Shown here piece after piece: positions 25,352 to 47,148 of a stretch of 64,000 nt of DNA (positions are counted from its first letter, which is position 1; each line of letters starts with the position of its first letter). The position numbers and the translations under genes are program-made. The DNA is taken from NCBI GenBank assembly GCA_002362065.1, contig DESX01000013.1, positions 1,567-65,566 on the forward strand, in the 5' to 3' direction. Source of the stretch: Solobacterium sp. UBA3303. Its GTDB lineage: Bacteria > Bacillota_I > Bacilli_A > Erysipelotrichales > Erysipelotrichaceae. Below the pieces are notes generated by a model. The model saw only the letters and a program-made list of their open reading frames with translations, searched no databases and was not told where the DNA came from.

Positions 25352-25459
25352 ATGAAAGACAATTTCAGGCTGAGCCTGTGGAAATGCCGCAGCGTTAAGA
25401 AGAATCTTCGGATGGAAGATCATCTTTTGTCATGCAAAGGGAGGAGTATTTATGAGTGA
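25352..25459 (+). CDS. possible 35-codon leader ORF overlapping the amidohydrolase start
   Basis: ATG at 25352 lies 6 nt after aaggag. Encodes MKDNFRLSLWKCRSVKKNLRMEDHLLSCKGRSIYE. Its TGA (25457-25459) overlaps the ATG at 25452. No homology evidence. Confidence 0.15.
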   Translation: MKDNFRLSLWKCRSVKKNLRMEDHLLSCKGRSIYE

Positions 25460-26789: not shown

Positions 26790-26791
26790 AT

Positions 26792-29869: not shown

Positions 29870-29887
29870 ACGTTCTGTGCATGATTC

Positions 29888-30046
29888 CGGATACCCGTCC
29901 TTGAATTTTGCCATACGGGATCCGCACTTAAAGAAAAACACAGTAAGAACTCCCCATGTTCTGACTGCTTTGTTTCCAGTATGAGCCGACGCATGTATAT
30001 CCGGCCGGTTTATATGGAAGAAACAGCGGAAAGCTTATGGGGAGTT
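29888..30046 (+). other. structured intergenic RNA candidate (two strong helices)
   Basis: Helix 1: cggatacccgt (29888-29898) pairs with acgggatccg (29915-29924), 10 bp with one bulge. Helix 2: aactccccat (29948-29957) pairs with atggggagtt (30037-30046), 10 bp enclosing about 80 nt. Confidence 0.3.
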
Positions 30047-30082
30047 TGTCTTGTATCTGTTTCTTTGACTGCAGCTCATTTC

Positions 30083-30116
30083 ACAGGCACCTTGGAAGAT
30101 GCCTGTTTTATTTTTG
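30083..30116 (+). terminator. intrinsic terminator about 215 nt after the operon's last stop codon
   Basis: acaggca/tgcctgt 7-bp stem with a 10-nt loop, then ttttattttt. Confidence 0.65.
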
Positions 30117-30278
30117 GCTTTTTAAGCGAACCGTAAGAAGAAAGCTACTTGTAACCATCAAAGAAGAGATGGTAATATTGAGATAGAGATGTATATATGA
30201 AAAGCAAAATGTATCCGATATGATAGAGGTCGTTTTTTATGTATGCAGATCCATTTTTTAGGAAAGAAGGAGAAAAAG

Positions 30279-31463: not shown

Positions 31464-31487
31464 TTTAATCGATCTGATGATATAAAA

Positions 31488-31511
31488 GAGAGGTGCTGCA
31501 AGGCACCTCTC
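31488..31511 (+). promoter_or_regulatory. intercistronic stem-loop after the binding-protein gene
   Basis: gagaggtgc/gcacctctc 9-bp stem with only a weak T tract. This is typical of partial termination or mRNA stabilisation that raises binding-protein expression over the membrane components. Confidence 0.45.
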
Positions 31512-31538
31512 TTCGCCTTTATTTGTGAAAGGATAGAT

Positions 31539-33077: not shown

Positions 33078-34198
33078 GCGTGAAGACGAAAAAGAAATTT
33101 GAGATCGCCAATTACACAGGCTTGTTGTCCTCTTTGATCGCCATCGTCGGCGGTCTGATCATTGCCTTCATAGTACTGATGGCGACCAATCCTTCCAAGG
33201 GCTTATCTGCCTTCGTCACGCTGATCACCGGCGGTTTCCAGCTTGGCGGCATGAAAAACCTTGGAACCCTGTTCTACTTTGCGACCCCGATCCTTTGTAC
33301 CGGCGTTGCGATGTGTCTGGCTTTCCAGGCCGGTATCTTCAATATCGGCGGACCTGGCCAGTATTCGGTCGGTGCTCTTGCAGCGATCTTAACATCTTTG
33401 TATTTTTCCAAGAACCTTCCGGCACCTTTGACCTGGATCGTACCGCTGATCGTTGCGACGTTCGCCGGTGCGGCCTGGGCATTCATTCCGGGCGTTTTAA
33501 AGGCATACTTCAACGTCAACGTGGTCATCGGTACCATCATGTTCAACTACATCGAAATGTACTACATGATGCACTGGATCAATGACTACTGCTACGATGC
33601 AATGAAAGGCCAGACCAGGGCCATCCCGGCGCAGTGCCGTCTGCCGCAGGCATTCATGCCTGCCATCACGCAGAACAAGACGGCAGATATCGGAATTTTG
33701 ATCGCGATCTTGTTTGCAGTACTTGCCTGGGTATTGATCGAGAAGACGAAACTCGGCTATGAACTGAAAGCCTGCGGCAAGAATGCCGAAGCTTCCCGCT
33801 ATGCCGGCATCCGTTCCAAGAGGAACATCATGATCTCGATCTTGCTGTCCGGTGCGCTTTGCGGCCTGGGCGGTGGTCTGACACACTTATCAGCTTCCGG
33901 AACCTACATCACGATGAAGGAACAGCTGGCGGCAGAAGGCTTCAATGGTATCGCAGTATGCTGTCTTGCCAACAACAATCCGCTCGGTGCGATCCTTGGT
34001 GCTTTGTTCCTTGCGTTCCTGACGGTCGGCGGCAACTACATGCAGATCTTCGGTTTCCAGAGAGAGATCGTTTCAGTTATCACATCCGTTATCATTTACT
34101 TCGCTGCATTCTCTTTGTTCCTGAAGCAGATCCTTGAGAGGCTTCTGATGAAACAGAAGACGCAGATCAATAAGGTCACGGGAGAGGAGCTCAAATAG
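33074..34198 (+). CDS. ABC transporter permease (BPD_transp_2 type)
   Basis: 374 aa, about 10 TM helices, ATGA overlap with the ATPase gene. Confidence 0.88.
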   Translation: MSVKTKKKFEIANYTGLLSSLIAIVGGLIIAFIVLMATNPSKGLSAFVTLITGGFQLGGMKNLGTLFYFATPILCTGVAMCLAFQAGIFNIGGPGQYSVGALAAILTSLYFSKNLPAPLTWIVPLIVATFAGAAWAFIPGVLKAYFNVNVVIGTIMFNYIEMYYMMHWINDYCYDAMKGQTRAIPAQCRLPQAFMPAITQNKTADIGILIAILFAVLAWVLIEKTKLGYELKACGKNAEASRYAGIRSKRNIMISILLSGALCGLGGGLTHLSASGTYITMKEQLAAEGFNGIAVCCLANNNPLGAILGALFLAFLTVGGNYMQIFGFQREIVSVITSVIIYFAAFSLFLKQILERLLMKQKTQINKVTGEELK

Positions 34199-34199
34199 T

Positions 34200-35156
34200 A
34201 TGGAAATGTTCTACTTTATCGCACGATATTTCATGTATTTCTTCATTCCGCTCCTGGTCGTCTCCATCAGCGGCATGTTCTCCGAGCGAAGCGGTGTCAT
34301 CCATATGGGTCTGGATTCCGTCATGGTCTGGTCCTGTATGTGGGGCGTCCTCTGTCTGCAATGGCTCGATGGCGTTGTAGCCGGTCAGCTGAGACTGATC
34401 ATCGCATTGCTGTTTGCCGGTGTCATGGGTGTCCTGCTGACGCTGTTATTGGCGTTTGCGGCCATCAACCTGAACGCCGATCAGACGATCGTCGGCATGG
34501 CGATGAATACCTTTGCGCCAGCCTTCTGTATCTTCTTTGCCAGAGTACTGCAGAATGGTTCGGAACATTTGTCGATCCGCAATGACTTCCTGATCGAAAG
34601 GATACCTGTCCTTGCCGATATACCAATCATCGGTCCGATGTTCTTTACAAGGACCTACATCACCAACTTCATCGGTATTGCGATCTTCATCATTTCGGCG
34701 ATCATCCTCAACAAGACCAGATTCGGTTTGAGAATGTGCGCGTGTGGTGAAAACCCGCAGGCAGCCGAATCCTTGGGTGTCAACGTACAGAAGTACAGAT
34801 ATGCCGCTTTGATCATCGCCGGCTTCATCGGCGGTATGGGCGGTCTGATGTACATCCTGCCGGTTGCGACCCACTACTCGCAGACCGTCGGCGGTTACGG
34901 TTATCTGGCAATGTCGGTTCTGATCTTTGGTCAGTGGCGTTCGATCCCGTTACTTGGTGCGGCAGCGTTCTTTGCTTTCTGCAAGACCATCGCCAACGCC
35001 TATTCCGGTATCCCGCTTTTAAACAACCTGGGTCTTCCGGCTGCGTTCTACAAGAGCCTTCCGTTCATCATCACTTTGATCGCTCTGGCGATCACGTCAA
35101 AGCACGACCACGCGCCAAAGGCGTCCGGTCAGCCTTACGACAAGTCGATGCGTTAA
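34200..35156 (+). CDS. ABC transporter permease (BPD_transp_2 type)
   Basis: 318 aa, polytopic, starts 1 nt after the upstream stop. Confidence 0.88.
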   Translation: MEMFYFIARYFMYFFIPLLVVSISGMFSERSGVIHMGLDSVMVWSCMWGVLCLQWLDGVVAGQLRLIIALLFAGVMGVLLTLLLAFAAINLNADQTIVGMAMNTFAPAFCIFFARVLQNGSEHLSIRNDFLIERIPVLADIPIIGPMFFTRTYITNFIGIAIFIISAIILNKTRFGLRMCACGENPQAAESLGVNVQKYRYAALIIAGFIGGMGGLMYILPVATHYSQTVGGYGYLAMSVLIFGQWRSIPLLGAAAFFAFCKTIANAYSGIPLLNNLGLPAAFYKSLPFIITLIALAITSKHDHAPKASGQPYDKSMR

Positions 35157-35172
35157 TATCTGTCCTTATAAG

Positions 35173-35203
35173 TTCAGCCGGAGCGAATCCGGCTGAATTT
35201 TTT
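35173..35203 (+). terminator. intrinsic terminator after nucleoside ABC operon
   Basis: ttcagccgga/tccggctgaa 10-bp stem, 5-nt loop, tttttt. Confidence 0.8.
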
Positions 35204-35225
35204 GTTTGTGATATCATCATATCAG

Positions 35226-36044
35226 GTGAAAAAGTTTATTCTTTGTCTCATCATACTGGCTCTTTCCTTCCTCTTCTTTTTTCAGAAGCGGGCTTTTGTA
35301 CATGGGCCAGCCATCTTTTCCTGGCATGACGATGTACTGGATGAGAAAAAGGAAGTCCTTTTTTCCTTAATGAAGGACTACGGACTAAAGGAAGTTTATC
35401 AGTATTTTTCTTCCGGTCTGGAAAATGAAGAGATCCTCTCCTTTATCGAAGAATGCAAAAACAATCAGATCAGAGTCTTTGCTCTGCTGGGAGAGGCAAA
35501 CTGGGCCTTGCAGGAGGACGGGGCTTCTTTGATCAGGGCCATGGAGAGATTTGATGAACTTGAAATCGATGGCTTTGTGATCGATATCGAACCGCATCTG
35601 TTAAAGGATTTCAAGGAAGATGATCAAAGGATCATGGACTGCTTTGCATCCTGTCTGGAAAAGGGGAGAACTTATGCGAAAGAAAAAAACAAGGAATTCA
35701 TCGTCTGTCTTCCATACCATTTTGACCGCTACGAACAGCTTGAAAAGATCATCGATAAAGGCCTTGATACACTGGCGATCATGAATTATTACCGCAGGGA
35801 TGAGATCGCACATCTCGAAACGGAAGCATCCTTGTGTAAGAAATATAACAAGACTCTGATCACGATCTATGAGTTTCAGAAGGCCGGTACTTATGGGCTG
35901 GAAGAGATCAATACGTACCATATGGAAGGATTTGAATCTTTAAGAAGAAGCTATGAATTGATGCGCTTGCATTATAATAAAAATAGTTTTAATTTCGCGA
36001 TCCACGAGTTTGAATCGTTCAAAGAAGCTGAAGCATATGAATGA
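35226..36044 (+). CDS. membrane-anchored hypothetical protein with GH18-like DGxxxDxE motif
   Basis: N-terminal TM (KKFILCLIILALSFLFFF). DGFVIDIE at 35568-35591. Alternating pattern compatible with a TIM barrel. Start uncertain: GTG 35226 chosen, since TTG 35202 lies inside the terminator T-run. Confidence 0.45.
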   Translation: MKKFILCLIILALSFLFFFQKRAFVHGPAIFSWHDDVLDEKKEVLFSLMKDYGLKEVYQYFSSGLENEEILSFIEECKNNQIRVFALLGEANWALQEDGASLIRAMERFDELEIDGFVIDIEPHLLKDFKEDDQRIMDCFASCLEKGRTYAKEKNKEFIVCLPYHFDRYEQLEKIIDKGLDTLAIMNYYRRDEIAHLETEASLCKKYNKTLITIYEFQKAGTYGLEEINTYHMEGFESLRRSYELMRLHYNKNSFNFAIHEFESFKEAEAYE

Positions 36045-36732
36045 GGTATCCAGGCAGGAAAGAAAGTTTCTGATCACATTGGATCAGTATTATCGTTTTA
36101 AGGCGGATCTTGACAAGATCATGATCCCTGACGAACACAATCAGACGGATGGCTATTCGATCCGTTCTCTTTATTATGATTCCATCGATGACCGGGACTT
36201 CGAAGAAAAGGAAGAGGGCATCGAGCTAAGACGAAAGATCCGTTTAAGGAACTATGGTCCGGATACACCGTTTGCTCTGCTGGAGATGAAGCAGAAGGAA
36301 GGCTCCAACCAGAAGAAGCGTTCCCTTCGCTTGAGCAAAGAGGATGCATCGCTTTTATGCAAGGGCATCTATTCTCCGCTTTTGACAAGTGATGAGAAGT
36401 TTGGTCTTGAATGTTATGCATTAATGAATATGCACTGCTACCGGCCAAAGGCGATCGTGGAATACAAGCGTCAGGCATATATTGCCAAGGAAAACAGGAT
36501 CAGGGTGACCTTTGACCATCACATCATCGGCACGGAATCCAATTACGATGTCTTCGATGCGGATCTGCAGCAGTTTCCTCTGCTGGACCCGTATCTTGTG
36601 GTCATGGAAGTCAAATACAATGGCTTTTTGTTAAGCTATATCAAAGATATGTTAAGACAATGTGATCGAAGTGAACTGTCGGTAGGCAAATATGCCTTAT
36701 CGCGGACTTTGAGCAAGCATTTCAATTTTTAA
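36037..36732 (+). CDS. VTC-domain (polyphosphate polymerase / triphosphate-tunnel, CYTH-like) protein
   Basis: About 231 aa with no TM. Alternating charged beta-strand motifs ERKFLI, IRSLYYDS, RKIRLRNY, LEMKQKEG, RVTFD and VMEVKY are typical of tunnel metalloenzymes. ATG 36037 overlaps the upstream stop by 8 nt. Confidence 0.7.
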   Translation: MNEVSRQERKFLITLDQYYRFKADLDKIMIPDEHNQTDGYSIRSLYYDSIDDRDFEEKEEGIELRRKIRLRNYGPDTPFALLEMKQKEGSNQKKRSLRLSKEDASLLCKGIYSPLLTSDEKFGLECYALMNMHCYRPKAIVEYKRQAYIAKENRIRVTFDHHIIGTESNYDVFDADLQQFPLLDPYLVVMEVKYNGFLLSYIKDMLRQCDRSELSVGKYALSRTLSKHFNF

Positions 36733-36743
36733 GGGGAAAGAGA

Positions 36744-37421
36744 ATGAGTACATTTATTTCGGAACTGATCAATGAAAGCGGCGTACTGACTTTGCAGGAG
36801 ATCGTGATGCATATCACTGCCTCAGCGATCTTAGGCTTTATCGTCTACCTGTCCTACTGGTATACCCATGCGGGAACCGCCTATTCCAAGAAATTCAACG
36901 TTTCCTTGCTGACACTGGCGATCCTGACCGGCACAGTCATGACCGTCATCGGCAACAACATCGTCCTTTCTTTAGGTATGGTCGGTGCACTTTCCATCGT
37001 ACGTTTCCGTACAGCGATCAAGGATTCAAGAGATACGACCTACATCTTCTGGGCGATCATCATCGGTATCTGCTGCGGTGTCGGTGACTACGTCGTTGCC
37101 GGTATCGGCTCAGCCGTGACGTTTATCATCCTGCTGCTGCTTGGAAGAGTACGCAATGAAAACAGGATCTTACTGATCATCCGTGCCTCCAAGGCAGACA
37201 GCTCCAAGATCGAAGAACTGGTCTTTTCCTATTTTGACAAGAGGGCACTACTTAGAGTCCGCAATACAACAAGAGATCATGTCGAGCTGATCTATGAAAT
37301 GCCTCGCAGCATCTGGCAGCTCAACTATAAGAAAGATACCGATATCGCTGACGCTTTATACGCTCTTGAAGGCGTGGAATACGTCAATACCGTCACACAG
37401 TCTGATGAGATAACGGGGTAA
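36744..37421 (+). CDS. DUF4956 integral membrane protein
   Basis: 225 aa, about 4 TM helices, with conserved LSIVRFRTAIKDSRDTTYIFWAIIIGICCGVG, then a soluble C-terminal domain of about 90 aa. Confidence 0.7.
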   Translation: MSTFISELINESGVLTLQEIVMHITASAILGFIVYLSYWYTHAGTAYSKKFNVSLLTLAILTGTVMTVIGNNIVLSLGMVGALSIVRFRTAIKDSRDTTYIFWAIIIGICCGVGDYVVAGIGSAVTFIILLLLGRVRNENRILLIIRASKADSSKIEELVFSYFDKRALLRVRNTTRDHVELIYEMPRSIWQLNYKKDTDIADALYALEGVEYVNTVTQSDEITG

Positions 37422-37424
37422 GCG

Positions 37425-38945
37425 ATGTCGAAAGGCTCCCTGATCACGTTTGTCCTGGTCGCGGCAGTCTTAGGCTTTTCCTTCTTTTTTGAGCGAAGCG
37501 AAAACCTGATCGTCAGATCAAGACACGAACAGCACAAAGAATACGCATCCGTAAGCGATCTCGGTGAAGATCCTTTTAAGGATGCCTCTTTGTCTAGCCA
37601 CCTGCCGATCCTTGTGATCGAAACAGGCGGGCAGAAGATCCCGGGGGCTCCAGTCGCCAATGCGCTTGGACATCTCGACCACTACGAACTTTCCGATGAC
37701 GGCTCAGACCAGATCAAAGTGAAAGTATCCGAGATCTCCAAAAAAGATTCCTGGCACCACGACAGCGATGAAGCAGACAAGAGCTACGATGCTTTGTTTC
37801 GCATACGCGGCAACTCTTCACGCTGGTTTTCCAAAAAATCCTACCGTATCCGTCTTGTCGATGAAACCCTTCAGGATATCGATGCGCCATTCCTTGACAT
37901 GAAGGAAGGAAATCAATGGGCACTCTACGGACCATTCCTTGACAAGACTTTGATCCGCAATTACATGTGGATGAATATTGCCTCCAGGATCATGCCTGGC
38001 TACACGCCGGAAGTTCGTTTCTGCGAAGTTATGATCGATGGCGAATACCAGGGCGTTTATGTTCTGATGGAGATGATCGAAACGGGTGATGGCCGTGTCG
38101 ATCTGAGTGAATATGAACCGGGCGATCTGGCCATGAGCTATATGGTCAGGATCGAACCGCGCGTCAATCCGGAAAAACAGGTCGATAATTTCTCTTTCTA
38201 TACCTATCGCATGGAGACAGGAAGGAATGTTGAGATCATCTATCCGCCTTTGAAATACCAGGATGAGAGAGTCAAACGCTATGTCGAGACCGACCTTTCG
38301 GAAGTGGAACGCAAGATCTTCGGTGCGGAAACAGCCGATGGAAGCCATGCCTGGAAAGACGAGATCGATCTTGACAGCTTCATCAATTACTACATCATTG
38401 AAGAATTTTTAGGTATCAACGATACCTTCTCCGCTTCGACTTATTTTTACCGCGATGTCAGAGGAAAACTCTGCATCGGTCCGGTCTGGGATTTCAACAA
38501 CGCGCTTGACAACTTCTTCCAGCCGGTGCCGGACGATGATTTCATCCTTGCACAGAGAGGCTGGTTTGCCCAGATGATGAAGGACAAGGATTTCGTCGAA
38601 CGCGCCATACGCCGCTACAAACAGCTAAGAGAAGGCATCCTATCCGATGAAAACCTTTTGACATACATCAAAGAGACCGAAGACTACCTTGGTCCGGCGA
38701 TCGAAAGAAACTTCGAAGTCTGGGGCTACTCCTTTGACCCGGATAAGGTCACAAGCAGAGAGAGACGCAGTTTTATGGAGGGAGGCCTGGATGGCATCCA
38801 TACGCTGAATCCGGAAGATTATGCCGAGGCAAACGAGATGATGATCGATTATCTGCTAGATCATTCCCACTGGCTCGATGAAAACATCGATTCCTTACGC
38901 CAGTATTGTCATCCGTCCAAGTTCTCCGGACAGATCATTGAATAG
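37425..38945 (+). CDS. CotH-family atypical kinase, N-terminally membrane-anchored
   Basis: 506 aa. TM LITFVLVAAVLGFSFFF. CotH-like blocks YRIRLVDE, LYGPFLDKTLIRNYMWMNIA, EVMIDGEYQGVYVLMEMIE and GPVWDFNNA. Confidence 0.75.
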   Translation: MSKGSLITFVLVAAVLGFSFFFERSENLIVRSRHEQHKEYASVSDLGEDPFKDASLSSHLPILVIETGGQKIPGAPVANALGHLDHYELSDDGSDQIKVKVSEISKKDSWHHDSDEADKSYDALFRIRGNSSRWFSKKSYRIRLVDETLQDIDAPFLDMKEGNQWALYGPFLDKTLIRNYMWMNIASRIMPGYTPEVRFCEVMIDGEYQGVYVLMEMIETGDGRVDLSEYEPGDLAMSYMVRIEPRVNPEKQVDNFSFYTYRMETGRNVEIIYPPLKYQDERVKRYVETDLSEVERKIFGAETADGSHAWKDEIDLDSFINYYIIEEFLGINDTFSASTYFYRDVRGKLCIGPVWDFNNALDNFFQPVPDDDFILAQRGWFAQMMKDKDFVERAIRRYKQLREGILSDENLLTYIKETEDYLGPAIERNFEVWGYSFDPDKVTSRERRSFMEGGLDGIHTLNPEDYAEANEMMIDYLLDHSHWLDENIDSLRQYCHPSKFSGQIIE

Positions 38946-38950
38946 AGATT

Positions 38951-41023
38951 ATGAGACGATTCGTTGCGATATTGACAGTTTTGTTCCTGGTCATGGTGGG
39001 TTTCTACTATTCTTACTTCCATGCCGGATTCTATTTCGTAAGTGATGATCAGCCGATCAGCGCATTTTCCTATGCGGCAGGCAAAGAGATCTGCGTCAAT
39101 GAAGAAAAGACAGATATCCGCTGTGTCGATCTTTCCGCATCCCTGCCGGGGAAAAATTACATGGATTTCTCCATGAAAAAAGAAGATTATCTGGAGTGCT
39201 TTTCTCTGATCGAAGATTTAGGAGCCAACGCGGTCCGCGTCTCTTCGATCATGGATCAGGACTTCTACGATTCCTTTTTTGAGTACAACCAGACAAAAGG
39301 AAAGCTGTATTTGATACAGGGCATCTCCTTCAGTGATGCGATCCGAAAGAGTGTAAGGGATGGCTATGATTCCGGTCTTTACGATGAGCTTATCTCAACG
39401 GGAAAGACCGCCATCGATATCATTCACGGCAAAAGGGACATCTTCAATTTTGCCAGAGGCGAGTACGGTTTCTTCCGAAAGGACCTCTCAGATCTCGTAC
39501 TTGGCTTTGAACTGCTGGGCGGTTTTGATCCGGATATGGTCTCCTATACCGACCATCGTTTAGTCAAGGCTAAAACAAGCAGGCGAAATTACGTTTATCC
39601 GTCCGAAGACGCCTCCGTGTTTGAAACTCTGCTTTGTGATGCCATGGATGAGCTGTTCAGCTATGAAGGAAACAAGTATGGAACGCAAAGGCTCATCGGC
39701 GTGCAGATCGACAAGGGCACAGACCTCGTCCATTACGAAGAAGTCTACGAACGCCAGTTAAGCAAGTATGCCTACATCGATCCGCAGCATATCCAGACCA
39801 CTGAAACCAACAAAGCGGGATTCTATGTCGATTACCATCTTTCGATGACGATGATGGACCATGACATCGATCCTTCCACGCAGAAAGCCTACAAGGTACT
39901 TGAAGATCTGAATGAAAGCTACAGCTCCTATTGCGGAATGCTTGGAAGATACCATACGATGCCTTTGATCGCGACTTTCTCGGCCACGTCGGGCTTTCTT
40001 GCGGACAACGTCAATGATGAAGCCAATGATGAGACCATGCAGGGGCAGGAACTCGTCAATACATATAAGACCGTGAAAAACTGCGGTTTTGCCGGTGCAG
40101 CTGTCTCATCCTTGCAGGATATCTATTCGGCAAGCAGTTTCAATACCGCTTTCGCAACAGACACGTCCAACGCCTATTTATGGCACGAACTCTTGTCCGA
40201 AGGACAGAACTCCGGCCTGGTCGCTTTTGAAGCGGAGAGCTCACATTTTGCGGATGGCGATGGAAGCGAATGGAAGGCCGAAGATCTTGTGATCGACGCC
40301 GAAAAGAAAGTCTATCTTTCTTATGATTATGAAGGTCTCCATATCTTTGTCAAAGACGCAAAGGAAAGCGATCTGCTCTACCTTCCTATTGATACAAATG
40401 ACAGCCTTGGTGCAAGGAAAGCCAATGTCTGTCCGTTTGGCTTTGACCGGGCTGCCGACTTCATTTTGAAGATCCATGGAACAGATGATACGATCCTCTA
40501 TGTTCAGGAAAGACAGGATGCGACAAGAGAAAACTTCCGCTACGAGATGGAAGGTGAGAACGCCTTCAGCGATGTTCCGGAGGCGGATACCAATCAGTTC
40601 GTGATCGTCAATTTTGCTTTGAACAATCCTTATCTCACCGACAAGATCGATCCGCAAAGCCGTGCCTTGCAAAGACTGGGCAAACAGGAAGCCGGAAGGC
40701 TCATCCGCGGTAATGGCAACCCATATGATGCGAATTATGATTCTTTGAGCAGTTTCTGCTTTGGTGAAGATGGGGTTGAAGTATTGATCCCATGGCTGAT
40801 GTTAAATGTCGGGGATCCTTGCAACATGCGGATCCATCAGGACTACTATCGTAATTACGGTGTCGATTTCAAGAAGATCGACAAGATCTATATCGGCCTG
40901 AGCAGTGATGCAAGAGTCATTGAACTCAAACCATTCAGTGTCAAAGGCTGGGGCGATGTGAAATATGTGATGCGGACGAAGAAGAGCTATGAAGTTTTAG
41001 GAAATGTCTGGAGGGCTGAATAG
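38951..41023 (+). CDS. large membrane-anchored hypothetical protein (possible glycoside-hydrolase-like N-terminal domain)
   Basis: 690 aa. N-terminal TM FVAILTVLFLVMVGFYY. LIEDLGANAVRVSSIMDQDFYD resembles TIM-barrel glycosidase openings. No confident family. Confidence 0.35.
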   Translation: MRRFVAILTVLFLVMVGFYYSYFHAGFYFVSDDQPISAFSYAAGKEICVNEEKTDIRCVDLSASLPGKNYMDFSMKKEDYLECFSLIEDLGANAVRVSSIMDQDFYDSFFEYNQTKGKLYLIQGISFSDAIRKSVRDGYDSGLYDELISTGKTAIDIIHGKRDIFNFARGEYGFFRKDLSDLVLGFELLGGFDPDMVSYTDHRLVKAKTSRRNYVYPSEDASVFETLLCDAMDELFSYEGNKYGTQRLIGVQIDKGTDLVHYEEVYERQLSKYAYIDPQHIQTTETNKAGFYVDYHLSMTMMDHDIDPSTQKAYKVLEDLNESYSSYCGMLGRYHTMPLIATFSATSGFLADNVNDEANDETMQGQELVNTYKTVKNCGFAGAAVSSLQDIYSASSFNTAFATDTSNAYLWHELLSEGQNSGLVAFEAESSHFADGDGSEWKAEDLVIDAEKKVYLSYDYEGLHIFVKDAKESDLLYLPIDTNDSLGARKANVCPFGFDRAADFILKIHGTDDTILYVQERQDATRENFRYEMEGENAFSDVPEADTNQFVIVNFALNNPYLTDKIDPQSRALQRLGKQEAGRLIRGNGNPYDANYDSLSSFCFGEDGVEVLIPWLMLNVGDPCNMRIHQDYYRNYGVDFKKIDKIYIGLSSDARVIELKPFSVKGWGDVKYVMRTKKSYEVLGNVWRAE

Positions 41024-42088
41024 ATGCGGATAATCATTGAGGGTGTGATCTATTTCTATCTGTTCATTTGTGCGGCACTTCTTCTTTTCAATGTGATCTA
41101 CATCTACCGGCAGACACAGAAAGAGAAAAACAAGGAAAAACGGATCGAAAGCTGGAAACAGAAACTGAAAAAAGACAAACAGAATACGATCCTGGATGAT
41201 AAGACCGTTGAAAAACTCAAGGATGCACAGCATCTGACTGGTCTTTACAATGCGATGGACGCAGTGCTCAAAGACAAGAAGAAACGTCTGACCTTCTACA
41301 AGAAGAACATGGCCGCTTTTCAGAAGCTGGCTCTGGAATATGAAAAACATAATGCCATGGAGAAGGCCTTCTTTGCCTATGTGCTGGCTTCCTTCGAATT
41401 CGACGGTACCGCAAACGAGGGCATCATGTCGCAGATCATGCTGCAGTGCTTTGAAGATTCAACGATCTACTGCAGAGAGAATCTTTTACACGCTTTGTAT
41501 GCGTTAGGAAAGAGCCAGGCGATCGAACATGGCTTTGCCTTGCTCAATGAGAATGACTGGTATCATTCGCCAAAGCTGATCGCGGATGGATTATTGAAAT
41601 ACAGGGGCGATCAGAAGGAACTGTGCGAACGCTTGTGGCGTCACCACGATGAATGGCGCGATTATCTTTTAGTCGGTGTCGTTCAATACGCCTCCATGTG
41701 CAAGGATGATTTCTTCAACGATGAACTGTTAAAAGATCTGCAGGACAAGGATACGCAGGATGAAGTCCGTTTTGCGATCATCCGTTATTTCATGCACCAC
41801 AAGGATGAAAAGATCCTGCCGCTTCTTTTAAGCTATGCCAGGGAAGAAGGGACCGATGACCGCTTTGCGATCCCGGCCTGTCTGAGCCTGCAGTCTTATC
41901 CTTGTGAAGAAAGCATCGATGCCCTGTGTCAGGCGATGCATTCAAGAAACTGGTATGTGCGTAAAAATGCTGTGATCTCTTTATATAAACTCAAAGCCGA
42001 CAAAAAAGCCTCCGAAAATCTGGGGGATGACCGTTATGCAAGAGAGATGTTTGAATATGTCGGCGCATCTTTGAAGGAGGCCGCATGA
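41024..42088 (+). CDS. membrane-anchored HEAT/ARM-like repeat protein
   Basis: 354 aa. N-terminal TM, lysine-rich linker, then helical repeats (LLHALYALGKSQAIEHGFALL, IDALCQAMHSRNWYVRKNAVISLYKL). The ATG directly follows the upstream TAG. Confidence 0.45.
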   Translation: MRIIIEGVIYFYLFICAALLLFNVIYIYRQTQKEKNKEKRIESWKQKLKKDKQNTILDDKTVEKLKDAQHLTGLYNAMDAVLKDKKKRLTFYKKNMAAFQKLALEYEKHNAMEKAFFAYVLASFEFDGTANEGIMSQIMLQCFEDSTIYCRENLLHALYALGKSQAIEHGFALLNENDWYHSPKLIADGLLKYRGDQKELCERLWRHHDEWRDYLLVGVVQYASMCKDDFFNDELLKDLQDKDTQDEVRFAIIRYFMHHKDEKILPLLLSYAREEGTDDRFAIPACLSLQSYPCEESIDALCQAMHSRNWYVRKNAVISLYKLKADKKASENLGDDRYAREMFEYVGASLKEAA

Positions 42089-43488
42089 GCACAATGGTCA
42101 ATGCGATCCTGAAATTCGGTCAGGTCTTCTTCCTGATCTATCTGATGATCTATGCGTCCTATCTTTTCCTTTCGGTCGCGGTCGGTGCCAACAAGCTCTA
42201 TAAGGAAGACCATCGCCGCAGCATCAAGAACGAACTCAAACACGATTACTATTTCCCGGTATCGATCTTAGTACCGGCCTATAACGAGGAAGTCACGATC
42301 ATCGAAAGTGTGGAATCTTTGCTGAGCCTTGATTACCGGCTTTATGAAGTCATCGTCGTCGATGACGGATCCAAGGATGATACCGCAAAAGTTCTGATCG
42401 ATCACTTCCATATGCACAAGGTCTCCAAGCCGATCCGCATTGCCGTACCTTGTAAGCCGATCCTGGAGGTCTATGAGGCTCCGGGCACCAAAAAGAAACT
42501 GACGCTGATCCGCAAAGTAAACGGCGGAAAGGGCGATGCCTTAAATGTAGGCATCAACGCTTCCCAGTATCCGTATTTTGTCTGTATCGATGCAGACTCG
42601 ATGCTGCAGACCGACTCTTTGACCCGTATCATTCAGCCGGCCATGGAAGATGATGATATCGTGGCTGTCGGCGGACTGATCCGTGTGGCACAGTGTGTCC
42701 GTTTTGACGGCGACAAGGTCTCATACCACCTCTCTGACAATTTCTTAGCTTCCATGCAGGTCATGGAATACGACCGTTCCTTCCTGGCTTCAAGGATCTT
42801 ACTGGATGGATTCAACGGCAACCTGATCATTTCCGGTGCCTTTGGCCTGTTCAAGAAGGATGTCGTCATTGCGGCGGGCGGTTATGCCAACAACACGCTG
42901 GGTGAAGATATGGAACTCGTCGCAAAGCTGCACGTCTTCTGCCGCAACAATAATATGCGCTATTCGATCCGCTATGAACCGAATGCCATCTGCTGGTCGC
43001 AGGCTCCTGCTTCTTTAGGCGATCTGATGAAACAGAGACGAAGATGGCACCTGGGTCTGTTCCAGTGCATGACCAGATACGGCTTCATGTTTGGCAAACT
43101 GCGCTATGGACTGGTCGGAACCGTCTCGTATTTCTACTATCTGATGTATGAGCTGTATTCGCCGTTCATCGAAGTCTTCGGTTTATTCGTGACTTTGCTG
43201 GCATTATTCAATGGCCAGCTCAATATACCGTTCCTGATCCGTTTCCATCTTCTGTTTGCGATCTACGGTTCGATCTTAACGATCACCGCATTCTTCCAGA
43301 GGATCTATACGCAAAACCTGAAGATCTCACGAAGCGACCTGTACCGGGCCATACTGATGTGTTTTATTGAAAACATCTTCTTCCGTTTCGTTCTCGATTA
43401 TGTGCGTTTCAATGCCTTTTTAGGCTATGGCAAAAACAAGAACAACTGGGGCTCGATCAAGCGTTTCAAACACTCGGAGGCAAAATAA
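42085..43488 (+). CDS. processive family-2 glycosyltransferase (polysaccharide synthase)
   Basis: 467 aa. VVVDDGSKDDT, DADS, GEDMEL and QRRRW (43033-43047). One or two N-terminal and about 4 C-terminal TM helices. No PilZ domain. ATGA overlap with the upstream gene. Confidence 0.85.
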   Translation: MSTMVNAILKFGQVFFLIYLMIYASYLFLSVAVGANKLYKEDHRRSIKNELKHDYYFPVSILVPAYNEEVTIIESVESLLSLDYRLYEVIVVDDGSKDDTAKVLIDHFHMHKVSKPIRIAVPCKPILEVYEAPGTKKKLTLIRKVNGGKGDALNVGINASQYPYFVCIDADSMLQTDSLTRIIQPAMEDDDIVAVGGLIRVAQCVRFDGDKVSYHLSDNFLASMQVMEYDRSFLASRILLDGFNGNLIISGAFGLFKKDVVIAAGGYANNTLGEDMELVAKLHVFCRNNNMRYSIRYEPNAICWSQAPASLGDLMKQRRRWHLGLFQCMTRYGFMFGKLRYGLVGTVSYFYYLMYELYSPFIEVFGLFVTLLALFNGQLNIPFLIRFHLLFAIYGSILTITAFFQRIYTQNLKISRSDLYRAILMCFIENIFFRFVLDYVRFNAFLGYGKNKNNWGSIKRFKHSEAK

Positions 43489-43494
43489 AGCAAC

Positions 43495-44253
43495 ATGAAA
43501 AAGAAAAAATTCTCATTCCTCAAACTGATCCTGGGCATACTCGTGGTCTTTTTGCTGTTGTGTGCAGGCGGTGTTTTTTACATCTATCAGAAAGTCAATG
43601 ACATCGGAAAATACAAGGATGAATTATCCTATGATTATCAATCGAAGATGGCTGAAAACGAAGGGAAGACCTTTGAAGACTTCATCTTCTACGATAAAGA
43701 GGCGATGGTCTTTGAATATAAAGTTCCTGCCTATTTTCTCTATGAGATCATCAATGAAGAGTCGATGGCTGAAATACTTGCCCTTCCTGAAGAACTTGAG
43801 ATCGCCGATGTCGGCGTGAAGCTGATGTTTGAAGAAAAGGAAGCTGACATCTATCTTTCCTTGAAATACCGCAATCTGATCAACACCTGTCTTGTTATTA
43901 AAACGGATATGCGTCTGAAAGAAGATCAGAGCGCTGTACAGCTTCTTTACAGAGATCTCTTTGTGATCGATGAGGAAGTCAGTGAATACGTCAGACAGAA
44001 CGTCCTGATGGAAAAGGGCACATTGTTATTTGAACACAAGTTCCCTGTCCATGTGCCATACTACAGAATGCCGGATTATCGCCCTGCTTTCATCCATGAT
44101 CTGGATTTTGACAAGGAATACATATACGCAAAATATGATATTGCCTCGGCAATGAAGGAATACCTTGCCCAGACGGAATATAACGAAGATTCCTTTGAAG
44201 AATGCATGGAGAAGGTGTACCTCGAAGTGCGTATGAACGGGATCGCCCATTGA
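43495..44253 (+). CDS. membrane-anchored hypothetical protein
   Basis: 252 aa. N-terminal KKKK plus TM (LKLILGILVVFLLLCAGGVFYIY) and an acidic extracytoplasmic domain. No recognisable family. Confidence 0.4.
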   Translation: MKKKKFSFLKLILGILVVFLLLCAGGVFYIYQKVNDIGKYKDELSYDYQSKMAENEGKTFEDFIFYDKEAMVFEYKVPAYFLYEIINEESMAEILALPEELEIADVGVKLMFEEKEADIYLSLKYRNLINTCLVIKTDMRLKEDQSAVQLLYRDLFVIDEEVSEYVRQNVLMEKGTLLFEHKFPVHVPYYRMPDYRPAFIHDLDFDKEYIYAKYDIASAMKEYLAQTEYNEDSFEECMEKVYLEVRMNGIAH

Positions 44254-44288
44254 ATGTATAATAGAATCGTTAAGAGGAGAATTACTGT

Positions 44289-44801
44289 ATGAAAACTTTG
44301 ATCGCTTATTTCTCGCATATCGGCGAAAATCTTCAGAACAATGAGATCGTTGAACTGAAGAAAGGCAATACGGAAGTCGTTGCAGAAAAACTGCAGCAGC
44401 TCACAGGCGGTGATCTTTACAAGATCGAGGAAGAAGAAGCATATCCTTACAAATATGACGACTGCTTAAGAAGAGCGAGAAGGGAAGATGAAAACAATGA
44501 GCACCCTGCTTTAAAGGGCGGTGTCAAACTGAATATGGACGACTACGATGAAGTCTACATCGGTTTCCCGATCTGGTATCGCACATACCCGAGAGCCGTC
44601 GCAACATTCTTAGGAATGTATGATTTTTCCGGCAAGACCGTTTATCCGTTCTGCACCAATGATGAAGGAACGTTCGGCATTTCTTTATTGGAGATGCAGG
44701 GAAGCATCAAAGGCGCTGAGATCTGCGATGGACTTGCAATCCGCGGTGTCGATGTGAACAATTCCGATGCCCGCATCCGGGCATATGTAGGTCTCTTATG
44801 A
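44289..44801 (+). CDS. flavodoxin-family protein
   Basis: 170 aa. N-terminal LIAYFSHIGEN and FPIWYRTYP pattern seen in short flavodoxin-like proteins. Confidence 0.7.
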   Translation: MKTLIAYFSHIGENLQNNEIVELKKGNTEVVAEKLQQLTGGDLYKIEEEEAYPYKYDDCLRRARREDENNEHPALKGGVKLNMDDYDEVYIGFPIWYRTYPRAVATFLGMYDFSGKTVYPFCTNDEGTFGISLLEMQGSIKGAEICDGLAIRGVDVNNSDARIRAYVGLL

Positions 44802-45637
44802 GAAGAAAAGACGCAGTCTTACTGAACGATCCCGATCCGTTTCATTCGATCGTTCCCTATGTGATGCCAAAGCGCACGGAAGCGGAAGTTTCCACGACCT
44901 GCACCTTTGATATTACGGATCTTCTTTCGATGATCAAGAAGGACAACGAAGAAAAGGGGACCAACTACAAGCTGTTTCATTGCATCTGCACGGCCATCGG
45001 CAAGACGATCTATCATCGTCCGAAGATGAACATCTTCATCGCCGGCCGCAAGTTCTGGCAAAGGAATGACATTACCCTGTCTTTCGTTGCCAAGCAGAGG
45101 TTCGCCGATGAGGCGGAAGAGACGCTGATGACCCTCAAGGTCAAAGAGGACATGGATCTTGATCAGATCTCAAAGATCATCCTGGGCGATGTGAAAAAGG
45201 CAAGAAGTGCCGGCACCAATTCTCTGGACAAGACGATGGAGATCGTCGGCAAGCTGCCGCGTTTCGTTCTGGAGATCTTCTTCTGGATACTCAGCCGCAT
45301 GGAATACCATGGCGTCTATCCGCAGGACCTTGCCAAAGGCGATCCGAATTATACGACCTGCCTGCTTTCAAACCTTGGTTCGATCGGTGCGGATTCCTGT
45401 TATCACCATCTGTCCAACTTCGGTACCAATTCGATGATGGGCACGATCGGTACGATCTATCAGGATGACAAGGGAAGAGACAAAGTCGAGATGACGATCA
45501 CGCTCGATGAAAGGATCGCGGACGGTTTCTATTTCGCAAGATCCCTGAAACTCTTGAAGTACCTTATGGAACATCCGCAGCTTCTGAAAGAAAAGATCGC
45601 CGATCCGATCCCGGAAGAGATCATGAAGAGTTTATAA
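44798..45637 (+). CDS. 2-oxoacid dehydrogenase E2 / CAT-fold acyltransferase-like protein lacking the catalytic His
   Basis: 279 aa. Catalytic-domain-like layout ending in LDERIADG (45506-45526) where E2 enzymes have DHRxxDG. ATGA overlap with the flavodoxin gene. Confidence 0.55.
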   Translation: MRRKDAVLLNDPDPFHSIVPYVMPKRTEAEVSTTCTFDITDLLSMIKKDNEEKGTNYKLFHCICTAIGKTIYHRPKMNIFIAGRKFWQRNDITLSFVAKQRFADEAEETLMTLKVKEDMDLDQISKIILGDVKKARSAGTNSLDKTMEIVGKLPRFVLEIFFWILSRMEYHGVYPQDLAKGDPNYTTCLLSNLGSIGADSCYHHLSNFGTNSMMGTIGTIYQDDKGRDKVEMTITLDERIADGFYFARSLKLLKYLMEHPQLLKEKIADPIPEEIMKSL

Positions 45638-45657
45638 GCCGCTGCTGCGGCTTTTTT
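45636..45657 (+). terminator. intrinsic terminator closing the ten-gene operon
   Basis: aagccgc-tgct-gcggctt followed by tttt. It overlaps the stop codon. Confidence 0.8.
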
Positions 45658-45741
45658 CGTGCGCAGACAATTTCGTTTATCACAGGTATCGTTTTTCTTA
45701 TATAATGTAAGAGGTTACATTTAAGGAGATTTTGTATCATT

Positions 45742-47148
45742 ATGACTAAAATCGAAAAGGAAAAGCGTGAGCTGGAACGTCTGGAGAGAGCTGAAGCTTT
45801 TCACAATCACAAACACTATTTTGCGATCCTCATCGTCGTTTTAAGTATCGTCTATATCGTCGATGAGCTCGCTTCTTCCGTTCGTGGTGTCGTTGAAGTA
45901 CAGACGATCCGCGATCTGTTCAACGTCGTCTATCCGTCTTCGGATTACGACAAGGCGACAGCAACTTTGGGCTTTGTCACGATGGCCGGCTATCTGAGCT
46001 ATCTGATCTCGCCGTTCTACAAGTCACTCGCTGACCGCTGGGGCAGAAAGCCGTTTTTGATCATCAACACCTTAGGCATGGGCTTAGGCATGTTGCTGTG
46101 CATCATTTCAAAGTCCGTTGCCGTCTACATCATCGGTACGGTCGTATTGACATTCTTCACGCCGAACGATGTACAGGTCATCTACATCATGGAATGTGCC
46201 CCGACGGAACACCGCGCAAAACTCTGCTCGATCACCAAGGGTCTGGCACTGATCTCCGTATCTTCATTAGGTCTTTTCGTCAAGCTCTTCGTCAACGATG
46301 CCGTACCAAGCACCTGGCGCAATGTCTTCATCATCCCGATCATCCTGGCTTTCCTGATCGGTTTTGCGGCGATCTATTTCGTATCCGAAACACCGGTCTT
46401 CACGCAAAGAAGGCTCAAATACCTCAGAAGCAGTGAAGAAGAAAGGATTCAGGCCATCAAGGAAGAACGTGCCAACGAAGAAAAAGAAAAAGAGAAGGCC
46501 GTTTCCGTCTGGGATGCCTTCCGCTATATCCTCGGTCACAAGCAGACCAGAGCCATCGCTTTGGTCGCCTTGCTGATGATGTTTTCGACCGGTTATACCG
46601 GCAAGTATCAGCCGATGCTGGAAGCCGGCAGATACAATGGCGTCATGACGACCGATGCGATCAACGTCGTATTGATGTTTTATCCGGTCATCAACGGTAT
46701 CTTTACGATCATCGGCGGTTTCATCACTGATGCGTTAGGACGCAAGAAGTCCGCTTTGATCCTTGGCTTATGGGCTGCCGTAGGTCTTGGCATCTTCGCG
46801 TATGGCTGCATCCGTCCGATGAATCCTTGGATCATGGGCCTTGCCTATGGTATCTCGATCGCCGGCTTATGGTCGATCTCCGATATGATCTTCTTTGTCA
46901 TCACTTCCGAATCCACACCGACCCAGATGCGTGCTTCCGTCGTCGGTTCCATGCAGCTGATCGGCATGTTTGGTGTCGGTTTCAATATGGTCTACAACAA
47001 CGTCGTCACGATGATCGCCGGTTCGACCAACCTGCCGATGGTCCTGACGATCGCTTACCTGCCTTTGATGGCGATCGCACTTGTCATCATGATGCTTCGC
47101 GTCAAAGAGACCAAGGGCGTCGATCTGGAAAATGTCCAGGTAGATTAA
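45742..47148 (+). CDS. MFS transporter
   Basis: 468 aa, 12 TM helices, charged central loop (EERIQAIKEERANEEKEKEK), and an MFS loop motif LADRWGRKP. TATAAT at 45701-45706 lies upstream. Confidence 0.85.
   Translation: MTKIEKEKRELERLERAEAFHNHKHYFAILIVVLSIVYIVDELASSVRGVVEVQTIRDLFNVVYPSSDYDKATATLGFVTMAGYLSYLISPFYKSLADRWGRKPFLIINTLGMGLGMLLCIISKSVAVYIIGTVVLTFFTPNDVQVIYIMECAPTEHRAKLCSITKGLALISVSSLGLFVKLFVNDAVPSTWRNVFIIPIILAFLIGFAAIYFVSETPVFTQRRLKYLRSSEEERIQAIKEERANEEKEKEKAVSVWDAFRYILGHKQTRAIALVALLMMFSTGYTGKYQPMLEAGRYNGVMTTDAINVVLMFYPVINGIFTIIGGFITDALGRKKSALILGLWAAVGLGIFAYGCIRPMNPWIMGLAYGISIAGLWSISDMIFFVITSESTPTQMRASVVGSMQLIGMFGVGFNMVYNNVVTMIAGSTNLPMVLTIAYLPLMAIALVIMMLRVKETKGVDLENVQVD

Follow-up and report, generated by a model that had tools for sequence, protein, structure and literature searches.

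A putative exopolysaccharide cassette of Bacillota, with a synthase module and a VTC/DUF4956/CotH module, in Solobacterium sp. UBA3303

A chromosomal locus associated with necrotic enteritis in Clostridium perfringens, NELoc-2, was catalogued by Lepp et al. 2010 (PMC2879425). It encodes a VTC-domain protein (230-232 amino acids, aa), a DUF4956 protein (222-226 aa), a CotH protein (497 aa), a hypothetical protein (685 aa), a HEAT protein (377 aa) and a family-2 glycosyltransferase (GT2, 466 aa). Here, a ten-gene locus was analysed that lies in a 64-kb stretch of contig DESX01000013.1 of Solobacterium sp. UBA3303 (the window) and whose genes 2 to 7 encode proteins of the same kinds with 231, 225, 506, 690, 354 and 467 aa, respectively, the likeness being one of gene-table order and protein sizes. 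In NELoc-2 the DUF4956 protein was labelled 'tubulin/FtsZ' and the GT2 'chitin synthase'; the locus ends at the GT2 gene and lacks the genes 8-10 of the window. NELoc-2 is variably present, and a resolvase gene adjoins it, as in Oscillospiraceae bacterium 38-13 (L002), where a resolvase gene at 5113-5721 stands just 5′ of the cassette. Features of NELoc-2 only are the duplication of the VTC-DUF4956 pair with a resolvase in between, a sigma/anti-sigma pair and a polysaccharide deacetylase, the last being carried by most strains (PMC11677781). The cassette of the window is therefore not new, having already been catalogued as the core of NELoc-2.

The VTC, DUF4956 and CotH genes, here called the trio, are also known from Pel loci. 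According to Whitfield et al. 2020, the Gram-positive pelDEADAFG genes are accompanied by contiguous accessory genes, namely cotH, a 'poly-phosphate polymerase' gene, DUF4956 and DUF4832 (PMC7112168). In Streptococcus intermedius (SIR_1591-1594), deletions of the DUF4956 and CotH homologs were reported in 2025 to alter Pel levels and to more than halve aggregation in sputum medium, and the DUF4832 protein was an active hydrolase (PMC12345266). The same paper stated that synteny of the trio was not found outside Pel loci, which is contradicted by the loci presented here. The Gram-positive Pel loci resemble the window in that the same trio stands beside synthase-dependent machinery and a protein with a transmembrane (TM) anchor, a TIM barrel and a beta-domain. 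They differ in having a PelD/E/A/F/G synthase of the GT4 type instead of GT2/HEAT, and in the order CotH-VTC-DUF4956. None of the Pel families (PelF GT4/DUF3492, PelG, PelA DUF2194, PelD/E) was present in the window operon, and hhalign comparison of the Pel-linked DUF4832 with the 690-aa family and with gene 1 revealed no homology (probabilities 1.5% and 6%, respectively). The first-pass annotation of the window had regarded the composition of the locus as undescribed, a claim that cannot be upheld given the NELoc-2 core (PMC2879425) and the occurrence of the trio, with a genetic phenotype, in Pel loci (PMC7112168, PMC12345266).

The best explanation of the locus, to which we give a probability of about 0.55, is a mobile exopolysaccharide cassette of Bacillota that consists of a synthase module and a phosphate module and is followed by three lineage-specific trailing genes. 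In such a cassette the GT2 synthase would polymerise and export a beta-linked polymer, probably of N-acetylhexosamine and resembling poly-N-acetylglucosamine (PNAG) or chitin. The HEAT protein would be its cytoplasmic, membrane-anchored partner, and the anchored 690-aa protein, with a fold of glycoside hydrolase (GH) clan GH-A, would handle the polymer outside the cell. The cytoplasmic VTC protein would use ATP to make polyphosphate or a related phosphoanhydride at the membrane, and the DUF4956 protein would pass or present this product across it. CotH, with ATP or the VTC product as donor, would place phosphate on the growing glycan or on one of the proteins in the secretion complex, and so change the charge, retention or amount of the polymer. 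Gene 1 may add an optional extracytoplasmic TIM-barrel enzyme.

The conservation of the cassette was investigated by an alignment scan with the VTC protein in one genome per GTDB species, which yielded 442 relatives, the best 80 of which were examined. The order VTC-DUF4956-CotH-690-HEAT-GT2 was found in 51 of the 56 loci with enough downstream sequence. Of the five exceptions, three were streptococcal loci lacking HEAT as a separate gene, one was rearranged and one had suffered a deletion. Cassettes were found in Lachnospiraceae, Oscillospiraceae, Clostridium (including C. gallinarum, L038; C. tunisiense, L037; and Clostridium sp. UBA4548, L027), Filifactor, Streptococcus agalactiae, Erysipelotrichaceae and a Planococcus plasmid. 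The closest genome relative among these best 80 was an Erysipelotrichaceae metagenome-assembled genome from goat jejunum (VTC 78% and GT2 87% identical), and the few detectable relatives of gene 5 were on contigs that carry the same six-gene order. The distance matrices of the six proteins correlate pairwise (r 0.65-0.89, Mantel p 0.001), and the six genes thus have a common history. A homolog of gene 1, which can join the six as an optional seventh gene, stood immediately 5′ of VTC in 35 of 73 loci. In most cassettes GT2 is the last gene. The conserved unit thus comprises six to seven genes and not ten. The co-occurrence of VTC, DUF4956, CotH and GT2 across genomes, which the first-pass annotation had named as a test, is very strong, whereas the proposal of ten genes as one conserved pathway is not supported.

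The cassette is made of two separable modules, a synthase module (690-aa protein, HEAT and GT2) and the trio. The synthase module was found without the trio as a 690-TM-HEAT fusion followed by GT2 (L097/L098), as a three-gene operon of 690, HEAT and GT2 (L099) and with several 690 paralogs and an HD-type protein (L100). A stand-alone 690 paralog had no HEAT or GT2 partner nearby (L007). A further arrangement (L095/L096, 1340-8257) has no VTC gene and consists of a distant DUF4956 gene (23% identity), genes for a 345-aa CotH-like protein, for a fusion of the 690 family with a carbohydrate esterase family 4 (CE4) domain and for a 245-aa protein, and a GT2 gene.

The trio in turn was found without the synthase module. 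A divergent sample was made of 80 metagenome loci chosen by similarity to the VTC protein of plasmid pNP95 of Pseudobutyrivibrio (28% identical), and the 690, HEAT and processive GT2 genes were absent from all 80, whereas CotH was present in 29 of 35. The recurrent neighbours in the 48 divergent loci of at least 8 kb were small GT2 (n = 18), GT4 (n = 8), GtrA (n = 7), LytR-CpsA-Psr (n = 6), Bac_transf (n = 6) and PelG (n = 6), and giant NAGPA phosphodiester-glycosidase/metallophosphatase proteins occurred in seven. These giant proteins (L136, 1960-8292, and six other metagenome loci) are about 2100 aa long and combine NAGPA and purple-acid/metallophosphatase domains with leucine-rich repeats of the BspA type; they may act on phosphodiester-linked glycans. 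A complete Pel locus, L170, comprises DUF2194, DUF3492-GT4, PelG, CotH, VTC, DUF4956 and DUF4832. In pNP95 of Pseudobutyrivibrio xylanivorans (L090, 8221-11360), CotH-VTC-DUF4956 is found within a heteropolysaccharide cluster. That cluster also holds GT2, two GT4, acyltransferases, pyruvyl transferases, GT61, a GH99-like protein and a phosphodiester glycosidase gene of about 6.2 kb. The trio is hence found in Pel loci, in GT2/HEAT loci and in loci of the Wzy/LytR-CpsA-Psr (LCP) type, and is therefore a portable surface-glycan module that accompanies at least three mechanistic types of machinery. The proposal of the first-pass annotation, a synthase-dependent glycan system coupled to a phosphate-handling trio, agrees with the co-occurrence of the six genes and with the glycan neighbourhoods of the trio.

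The synthase itself, gene 7 (42085..43488, + strand), encodes a membrane-embedded processive GT2 of 467 aa (Pfam Glycos_transf_2 1e-25, Chitin_synth_2 3e-9). Its invariant motifs are D94, D169-x-D171, G273-E274-D275 and Q317-R-R-R-W321, and it has one N-terminal and several C-terminal hydrophobic segments (4-35 and 357-440). The best NCBIfam model was PgaC_IcaA (TIGR03937 equivalog; 150.4 bits against a cutoff of 422.3). Relatives in the PDB were distant only, namely BcsA with a full-length match, chitin synthase and hyaluronan synthase (HAS), and no specific synthase type was singled out by a profile search of the PDB. The affinities with PgaC/IcaA and chitin synthase, the CE4 fusion in a relative and the deacetylase of NELoc-2 together lend moderate support to a polymer of the N-acetylhexosamine type.

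Gene 6 (41024..42088, + strand) encodes a 354-aa protein with one N-terminal TM segment and a HEAT-repeat domain (Pfam HEAT_2 5e-10). Its gene is always directly upstream of the GT2 gene, and the protein probably acts together with the synthase. Positive-inside counts and natural 690-TM-HEAT fusion proteins both predict a location of the HEAT domain in the cytoplasm. A stretch rich in lysine and arginine (K/R) follows the TM segment in 54 of 54 HEAT homologs. In the fusions (P0196, P0210, P0234) a second TM segment and a K/R-rich stretch lie between the 690 and HEAT halves, in agreement with the 690 part being outside and the HEAT part inside.

Gene 5 (38951..41023, + strand) encodes the anchored extracytoplasmic protein of 690 aa, a clan GH-A-like TIM barrel with a C-terminal beta-sandwich that matches no Pfam family. 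The AF2 model (pLDDT 83.4, pTM 0.84) had its best Foldseek matches in GH157 (E 3e-11), GH2 and GH5, and positive-inside counts place the C-terminus outside (35 vs 4). The family is large, with 2105 representative clusters. Relatives without the trio retain the ancestral motifs 'G-x-E-W' after strand 4, the place of the acid/base Glu in clan GH-A, and 'AEFG' after strand 7, the place of the nucleophile Glu, whereas gene 5 reads 'GGFD' and 'AT-FS' at these sites, both catalytic Glu being absent. The nucleophile was lost in 53 of 64 trio-linked copies (Glu 11, Gly 30, Ser 14, gap 5). It was retained as Glu in five relatives outside the full six-gene cassette (Fisher p ~4e-4, a small count in which kinship is ignored), one of which is at a locus that keeps distant DUF4956 and CotH-like genes. 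Since both Glu are missing, the likeliest role of gene 5 is to bind the polymer or to serve as its scaffold, and not to hydrolyse it. A CE4 deacetylase fusion of the family (P0192), which resembles PgaB and PelA, adjoins a GT2 that is 49% identical to gene 7. A subgroup of the family (P0170, P0217, P0224, P0233, P0247, P0256) has proteins of about 1070-1110 aa with an N-terminal extension of about 380 aa that has no Pfam match. Taken together, it is well supported that GT2 and HEAT make and export a polymer, to which the 690-aa protein would bind, or on which it would act, outside the cell.

The product of the optional gene 1 (35226..36044, + strand; 272 aa) has an anchor or signal at its N-terminus and a small TIM barrel, the latter recognised by AF2 and Foldseek and not by any Pfam family. 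The model is a plain 8-stranded TIM barrel (pLDDT 90.2) with generic TIM-barrel matches only, including GH18, GH26 and GH1 (TM score 0.5-0.6). D120-x-E122-P123, following strand 4, is invariant among homologs, and the C-terminus is placed outside (21 vs 6). Gene 1 had at first been called a GH18-motif protein. This assignment was rejected: no GH18 model matched, DxxDxDxE is not conserved beyond D-x-E, and only one of 33 homologs matched (E 0.008). A match to a 'putative GH97' (10yv) with a common LDVEP motif was not significant (profile E 0.05). No relation to the 690-aa family was detected by hhalign (probability 1.3%), and the idea that gene 1 compensates for the loss of the nucleophile in the 690-aa protein was dropped, as no association was found (Fisher p=0.31).

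Of the trio, gene 2 (36037..36732, + strand) encodes a soluble, single-domain VTC protein of 231 aa without any hydrophobic segment. It matches Pfam PF09359 over positions 2-230 of 235 (E 9e-42, 143.6 bits vs a cutoff of 23), belongs by this match to the triphosphate-tunnel fold and bears the NCBI name 'polyphosphate polymerase domain-containing protein'. Alternating charged residues (R6/E8/K10, R43, R65/K67/R69/R71, E83/K85/K87, R145, R156/T158/D160, E191/K193, K218) stay invariant over 28-78% identity, a pattern typical of a triphosphate tunnel, and the family comprises 5672 clusters at 90% identity. Gene 3 (36744..37421, + strand) encodes the DUF4956 membrane protein of 225 aa (Pfam PF16316 1e-12), with about four MgtC-like TM segments (weak MgtC match, 4e-5) followed by a C-terminal soluble domain. 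Its family carries the invariant motif SLGMVGALSIVRFRTAIKDxRD. DUF4956 adjoined VTC in 59 of 59 divergent-clade loci with room for it and in nearly all of the 80 close loci.

This absolute pairing, set against the 29 of 35 loci with CotH, speaks for an alternative in which VTC and DUF4956 make and export polyphosphate as a polyanion that cross-links a cationic, partly de-N-acetylated polymer, in the way that extracellular DNA does with Pel, and in which CotH has a separate task. The trio does accompany Pel, a cationic GalN/GalNAc polymer, as well as a PgaC-like synthase whose relatives carry CE4 deacetylases, and the eukaryotic VTC complex couples polyphosphate synthesis to translocation (PMC9911596). 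However, a deacetylase is neither in the operon nor recurrent near the 78 surveyed cassettes, and no relation of DUF4956 to the VTC channel subunits could be detected. Most loci have CotH, which co-evolves with the other proteins, and polyphosphate export by the bacterial VTC/DUF4956 family is itself putative. We consider such a matrix role quite improbable.

Gene 4 (37425..38945, + strand) encodes a CotH-family kinase of 506 aa with an N-terminal TM anchor (Pfam PF08757 5e-52, 177.8 bits). The family profile matched B. cereus CotH (5jd9, E 1e-8), while a search of the PDB with the single sequence gave no match. D333 ('INDTF') and D356 ('VWDFNN') are invariant and correspond to the catalytic D228 and metal-binding D251 of B. 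subtilis, and in the 5jd9 match they align with D224 and D247 of B. cereus. K137, the Lys of 'KKSY', is invariant as well. No genes for spore-coat substrates of the CotB/CotG type (Ser-rich) were found at the locus, and the CotH-bearing cassette occurs in non-sporulating streptococci.

Characterised CotH proteins are all protein kinases (PMC7821199), and CotH may face the cytoplasm as a membrane-tethered Ser/Thr kinase that switches HEAT/GT2 on or off by phosphorylation, with VTC/DUF4956 serving as a phosphate or energy sensor or as a nucleotide or polyphosphate buffer and the glycan left unphosphorylated. The same role was proposed by Whitfield et al. for the Pel loci of streptococci, which lack c-di-GMP signalling (PMC7112168). 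The trio mutants of S. intermedius alter the amount of the polymer and do not abolish it (PMC12345266), DUF4956 is similar to MgtC, by which ATP and phosphate homeostasis is regulated, and the CotH of the window has a K/R-rich flank after its TM segment and an ambiguous topology. For the S. intermedius CotH, however, secretion is predicted, and the protein has an FN3 domain (PMC12345266). The p-distance of CotH (0.58) is like that of the extracytoplasmic 690-aa protein (0.59), whereas cytoplasmic and membrane enzymes evolve more slowly (0.35-0.42). Moreover, the Pel, GT2/HEAT, Wzy-type and LCP-linked machineries that the trio accompanies have no common protein target, and its position beside NAGPA phosphodiester glycosidases and phosphoesterases points to glycan phosphate. 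A purely regulatory trio appears unlikely. The association with unrelated glycan pathways and with such glycosidases and phosphoesterases favours, by guilt of association, a trio that would be directed at the glycan over one that regulates a single synthase.

Within the preferred explanation of a synthase module with a phosphate module, the gene content, conservation, modularity and folds, the conserved residues of VTC, CotH and GT2 and the degenerate active site of the 690-aa protein are shown, and the nature of the sugar, the synthesis and export of polyphosphate and the target of CotH are the parts that we infer. A bolder version can be formulated. VTC and DUF4956 would then be a bacterial counterpart of the eukaryotic VTC complex that forms polyphosphate on the inner side of the membrane, and the exported polyphosphate would feed, as an energy-rich phosphoryl donor, an extracytoplasmic CotH glycan kinase where ATP is absent. 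The nucleophile-less GH-A protein would have been repurposed for the phosphorylated polymer, either by binding or by phosphate-dependent transfer. This version is unlikely to be right; if it were true, VTC/DUF4956/CotH would be a general surface-glycan phosphorylation module for Pel, GT2/HEAT and Wzy/LCP-type glycans.

Several observations weigh against the mobile exopolysaccharide cassette as explained here. Loss of the VTC gene in S. intermedius gave no clear phenotype, and Pel production there did not require any of the four genes (PMC12345266). In the literature no functional study of the GT2-type cassette was found and no biochemical function has been assigned, NELoc-2 having been catalogued without one. 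The GT2 score is far under the PgaC/IcaA cutoff, so that the sugar is not fixed by it, and the window operon holds no deacetylase. The tunnel residues of Vtc4 include R264, R266 and E426 (PMC9911596), but the solved Vtc4 was not reached when PDB sequences were searched with gene 2, either singly or as a profile. The searches consequently gave no alignment on which to map the catalytic residues of gene 2, any equation with R264/R266/E426 would be conjectural, and it is Pfam membership and the residue pattern that suggest a polyphosphate polymerase activity. DUF4956 is unrelated to the Vtc1-type channel. The K+R counts beside the first hydrophobic segment of CotH split 18 vs 24 under the positive-inside rule, which leaves its topology ambiguous, and with a cytoplasmic CotH an exported donor would be unneeded. 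Finally, no consensus sigma-70 promoter was found 5′ of gene 1.

Support for horizontal mobility of the cassette came from its flanks, which differ in every taxon; the genes that flank it in the window adjoin no other cassette. A complete seven-gene cassette (L089, 4470-12824) was detected on NZ_CP059541.1, a 67-kb non-mobilizable plasmid of Planococcus maritimus XJ11, a few kb from qatC, a gene of the Qat anti-phage system. The locus is the lowest-GC 10.4-kb stretch in the window (46.5% vs 48.4%), and the GC content at third codon positions (GC3) is 0.57 vs 0.62 (Mann-Whitney p=0.015). The AT-richness noticed in the first-pass annotation is thus real but small, and the accessory origin it suggested is supported by the plasmid copy, the differing flanks and the slightly low GC. 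The most recurrent neighbours of the cassette were GGDEF/EAL genes (13 of 78 loci), often directly after GT2, and none is present in the window. Enzymes of cyclic di-GMP (c-di-GMP) metabolism are typical neighbours of synthase-dependent polysaccharide systems.

Some cassettes deviated in structure. The streptococcal cassettes without a separate HEAT gene were those of L036, L058 and L060 (Streptococcus sp. and S. agalactiae ATCC 13813). In S. agalactiae an 890-aa protein without a Pfam family is encoded upstream of VTC, and the apparent GT2 open reading frame (ORF) of L060 (854 aa), whose last part is a tRNA_edit domain, is probably artefactual, owing to a masked stretch. In L066 (11457-14267) the N-lobe of CotH, up to residue 320 or so, continues in frame into the 690-aa protein from about residue 105 on, giving an ORF of 936 aa from which the catalytic lobe of CotH and the anchor of the 690-aa protein are missing by deletion. 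Probably this cassette copy is in decay; the apparent CotH-690 fusion is the product of an in-frame deletion and was discarded as uninformative on topology.

The ten ORFs of the window locus are all on the + strand at 35226-45637 and are separated by junctions of -8, 11, 3, 5, 0, -4, 6, 35 and -4 nt. The locus is bounded by two intrinsic terminators, both on the + strand, which are the strongest terminator-like hairpins of the region. The 5′ terminator (35170..35200) has a 13-bp stem with 6 GC pairs, a dG of -20.2 kcal/mol and 7 T in a T-rich tail, and ends the preceding Bmp-type ABC transporter operon. The 3′ terminator (45636..45653) has a 7-bp stem with 5 GC pairs, a dG of -11.5 kcal/mol and the tail TTTTCGTGCG, and overlaps the stop codon of gene 10. 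Inside the locus, terminator-like hairpins are weak, with stems of 5-6 bp and a dG no stronger than -6.1 kcal/mol. The ten genes are one real operon, and the layout first described, with its junctions, two terminators and lack of a strong internal one, was reproduced by the ORF coordinates and the hairpin energies. Between the upstream terminator and the GTG start of gene 1 there are only about 25 nt, with an extended -10-like sequence (TGATATCAT, 35209-35217). An AGGTGA resembling a ribosome-binding site overlaps the GTG; as such a site it is poor, and the start codon is uncertain. The short gap and the overlap make both the promoter and the true start of gene 1 ambiguous, and some of the transcription of the locus may come from read-through out of the ABC transporter operon. 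The gene that follows the locus, encoding a major facilitator superfamily (MFS) transporter, has a promoter-like site at 45677-45706. An Rfam scan of 34000-46500 detected no riboswitch and no other known RNA.

At the end of the operon, gene 8 (43495..44253, + strand) encodes an anchored protein of 252 aa that, like genes 1 and 5, matches no Pfam or NCBIfam family. Gene 9 (44289..44801, + strand) encodes a flavodoxin of 170 aa (Pfam Flavodoxin_4 5e-21), whose end is overlapped by 4 nt by the start of gene 10 (44798..45637, + strand; 279 aa). The Pfam family calls for VTC, DUF4956, CotH, HEAT, GT2 with QRRRW and flavodoxin all match those made by eye. Gene 10, first described as an E2/CAT-fold acyltransferase-like protein, is E2/CAT-fold-like by a weak 2-oxoacid_dh match (2e-7) of the C-terminal part only, and it reads 'DERIADG' where E2/CAT has 'DHRxxDG' / 'HHxxxDG', the catalytic His being replaced by Glu. 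It had no sequence relative in the PDB, and an exact look-up gave no record. A single N-terminal hydrophobic segment is present in five of the ten products, as had been claimed; the mass of the 690-aa protein and of gene 1 is predicted to lie outside as expected, whereas that of the HEAT protein is predicted to lie inside.

Strain-level copies of the same species carry the three trailing genes too, with the chromosomal context unchanged, and at least four strain-level metagenome contigs preserve the arrangement of all ten genes. Together with the tight junctions of 6, 35 and -4 nt and the lack of a terminator between genes 7 and 10, this stability would fit a ten-gene pathway with the flavodoxin and the CAT-fold protein as further modifiers of the secreted glycan. 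Yet phmmer and tblastn found no homologs of genes 8-10 among 170 other loci, and NELoc-2 and most cassettes stop at GT2. Gene 10 is without the catalytic His, and neither gene 9 nor gene 10 has a membrane or secretion signal. Such a pathway is highly improbable, and genes 8-10 are lineage-specific, co-transcribed riders without a conserved link to the cassette.

The 5′ flank (25452-35156 of the window, and 1-9120 of L091) is a nucleoside-salvage block with an amidohydrolase, three tandem PNP_UDP_1 phosphorylase paralogs, a DUF6198 protein and a Bmp/PnrA-type ABC transporter. On the 3′ side follow the MFS transporter, an alpha/beta hydrolase, a GH42 beta-galactosidase, glutamine synthetase and methionyl-tRNA synthetase (MetRS).

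The present survey adds to the described systems that the cassette falls into two modules, that the trio also occurs outside Pel loci, that the glycosidase is degenerate, that a plasmid can carry the cassette, that its commonest neighbours are c-di-GMP enzymes and that the HEAT domain is predicted to lie in the cytoplasm. The cassette is widespread and is carried by gut commensals and by pathogens, among them C. perfringens of necrotic enteritis, S. agalactiae ATCC 13813 and Filifactor alocis. The acquisition of the trio goes with loss of the nucleophile in the 690 glycosidase, the synthase module can stand alone, and the trio is portable between at least three unrelated glycan machineries; all three are testable handles. 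These results bear on the roles of bacterial VTC-domain proteins and of CotH kinases outside spores, and on a possible phosphate or polyphosphate decoration of matrix polymers.

Three further systems can be compared with the locus. The spore-coat kinase CotH of Bacillus belongs to the same Pfam family and has the same catalytic Asp pair and Lys, but the protein of the window is membrane-anchored and encoded in a vegetative glycan operon, with no CotB/CotG-like substrate nearby. With the eukaryotic VTC complex, in which polyphosphate synthesis by Vtc4 is coupled to membrane translocation through a Vtc1/2/3 channel (PMC9911596), the locus shares the Pfam catalytic domain and an obligatory membrane partner, and the putative charged tunnel and the suggested coupling of synthesis with translocation would be further likenesses. 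It differs in that gene 2 is without SPX and the operon without a Vtc1-type (DUF202) TM domain or channel subunit, the partner being an unrelated MgtC-like protein. From the PNAG systems (PgaABCD, IcaADBC) the operon is set apart by the lack of PgaD/IcaD, PgaA and IcaC, in whose place it has a HEAT partner, and by the lack of a deacetylase, and we know of no phosphate module in Pga/Ica systems. The likeness to PNAG systems lies in the processive GT2 with QxxRW, the extracytoplasmic TIM barrel, the CE4 fusion in relatives, as in PgaB, and the nearby c-di-GMP enzymes.

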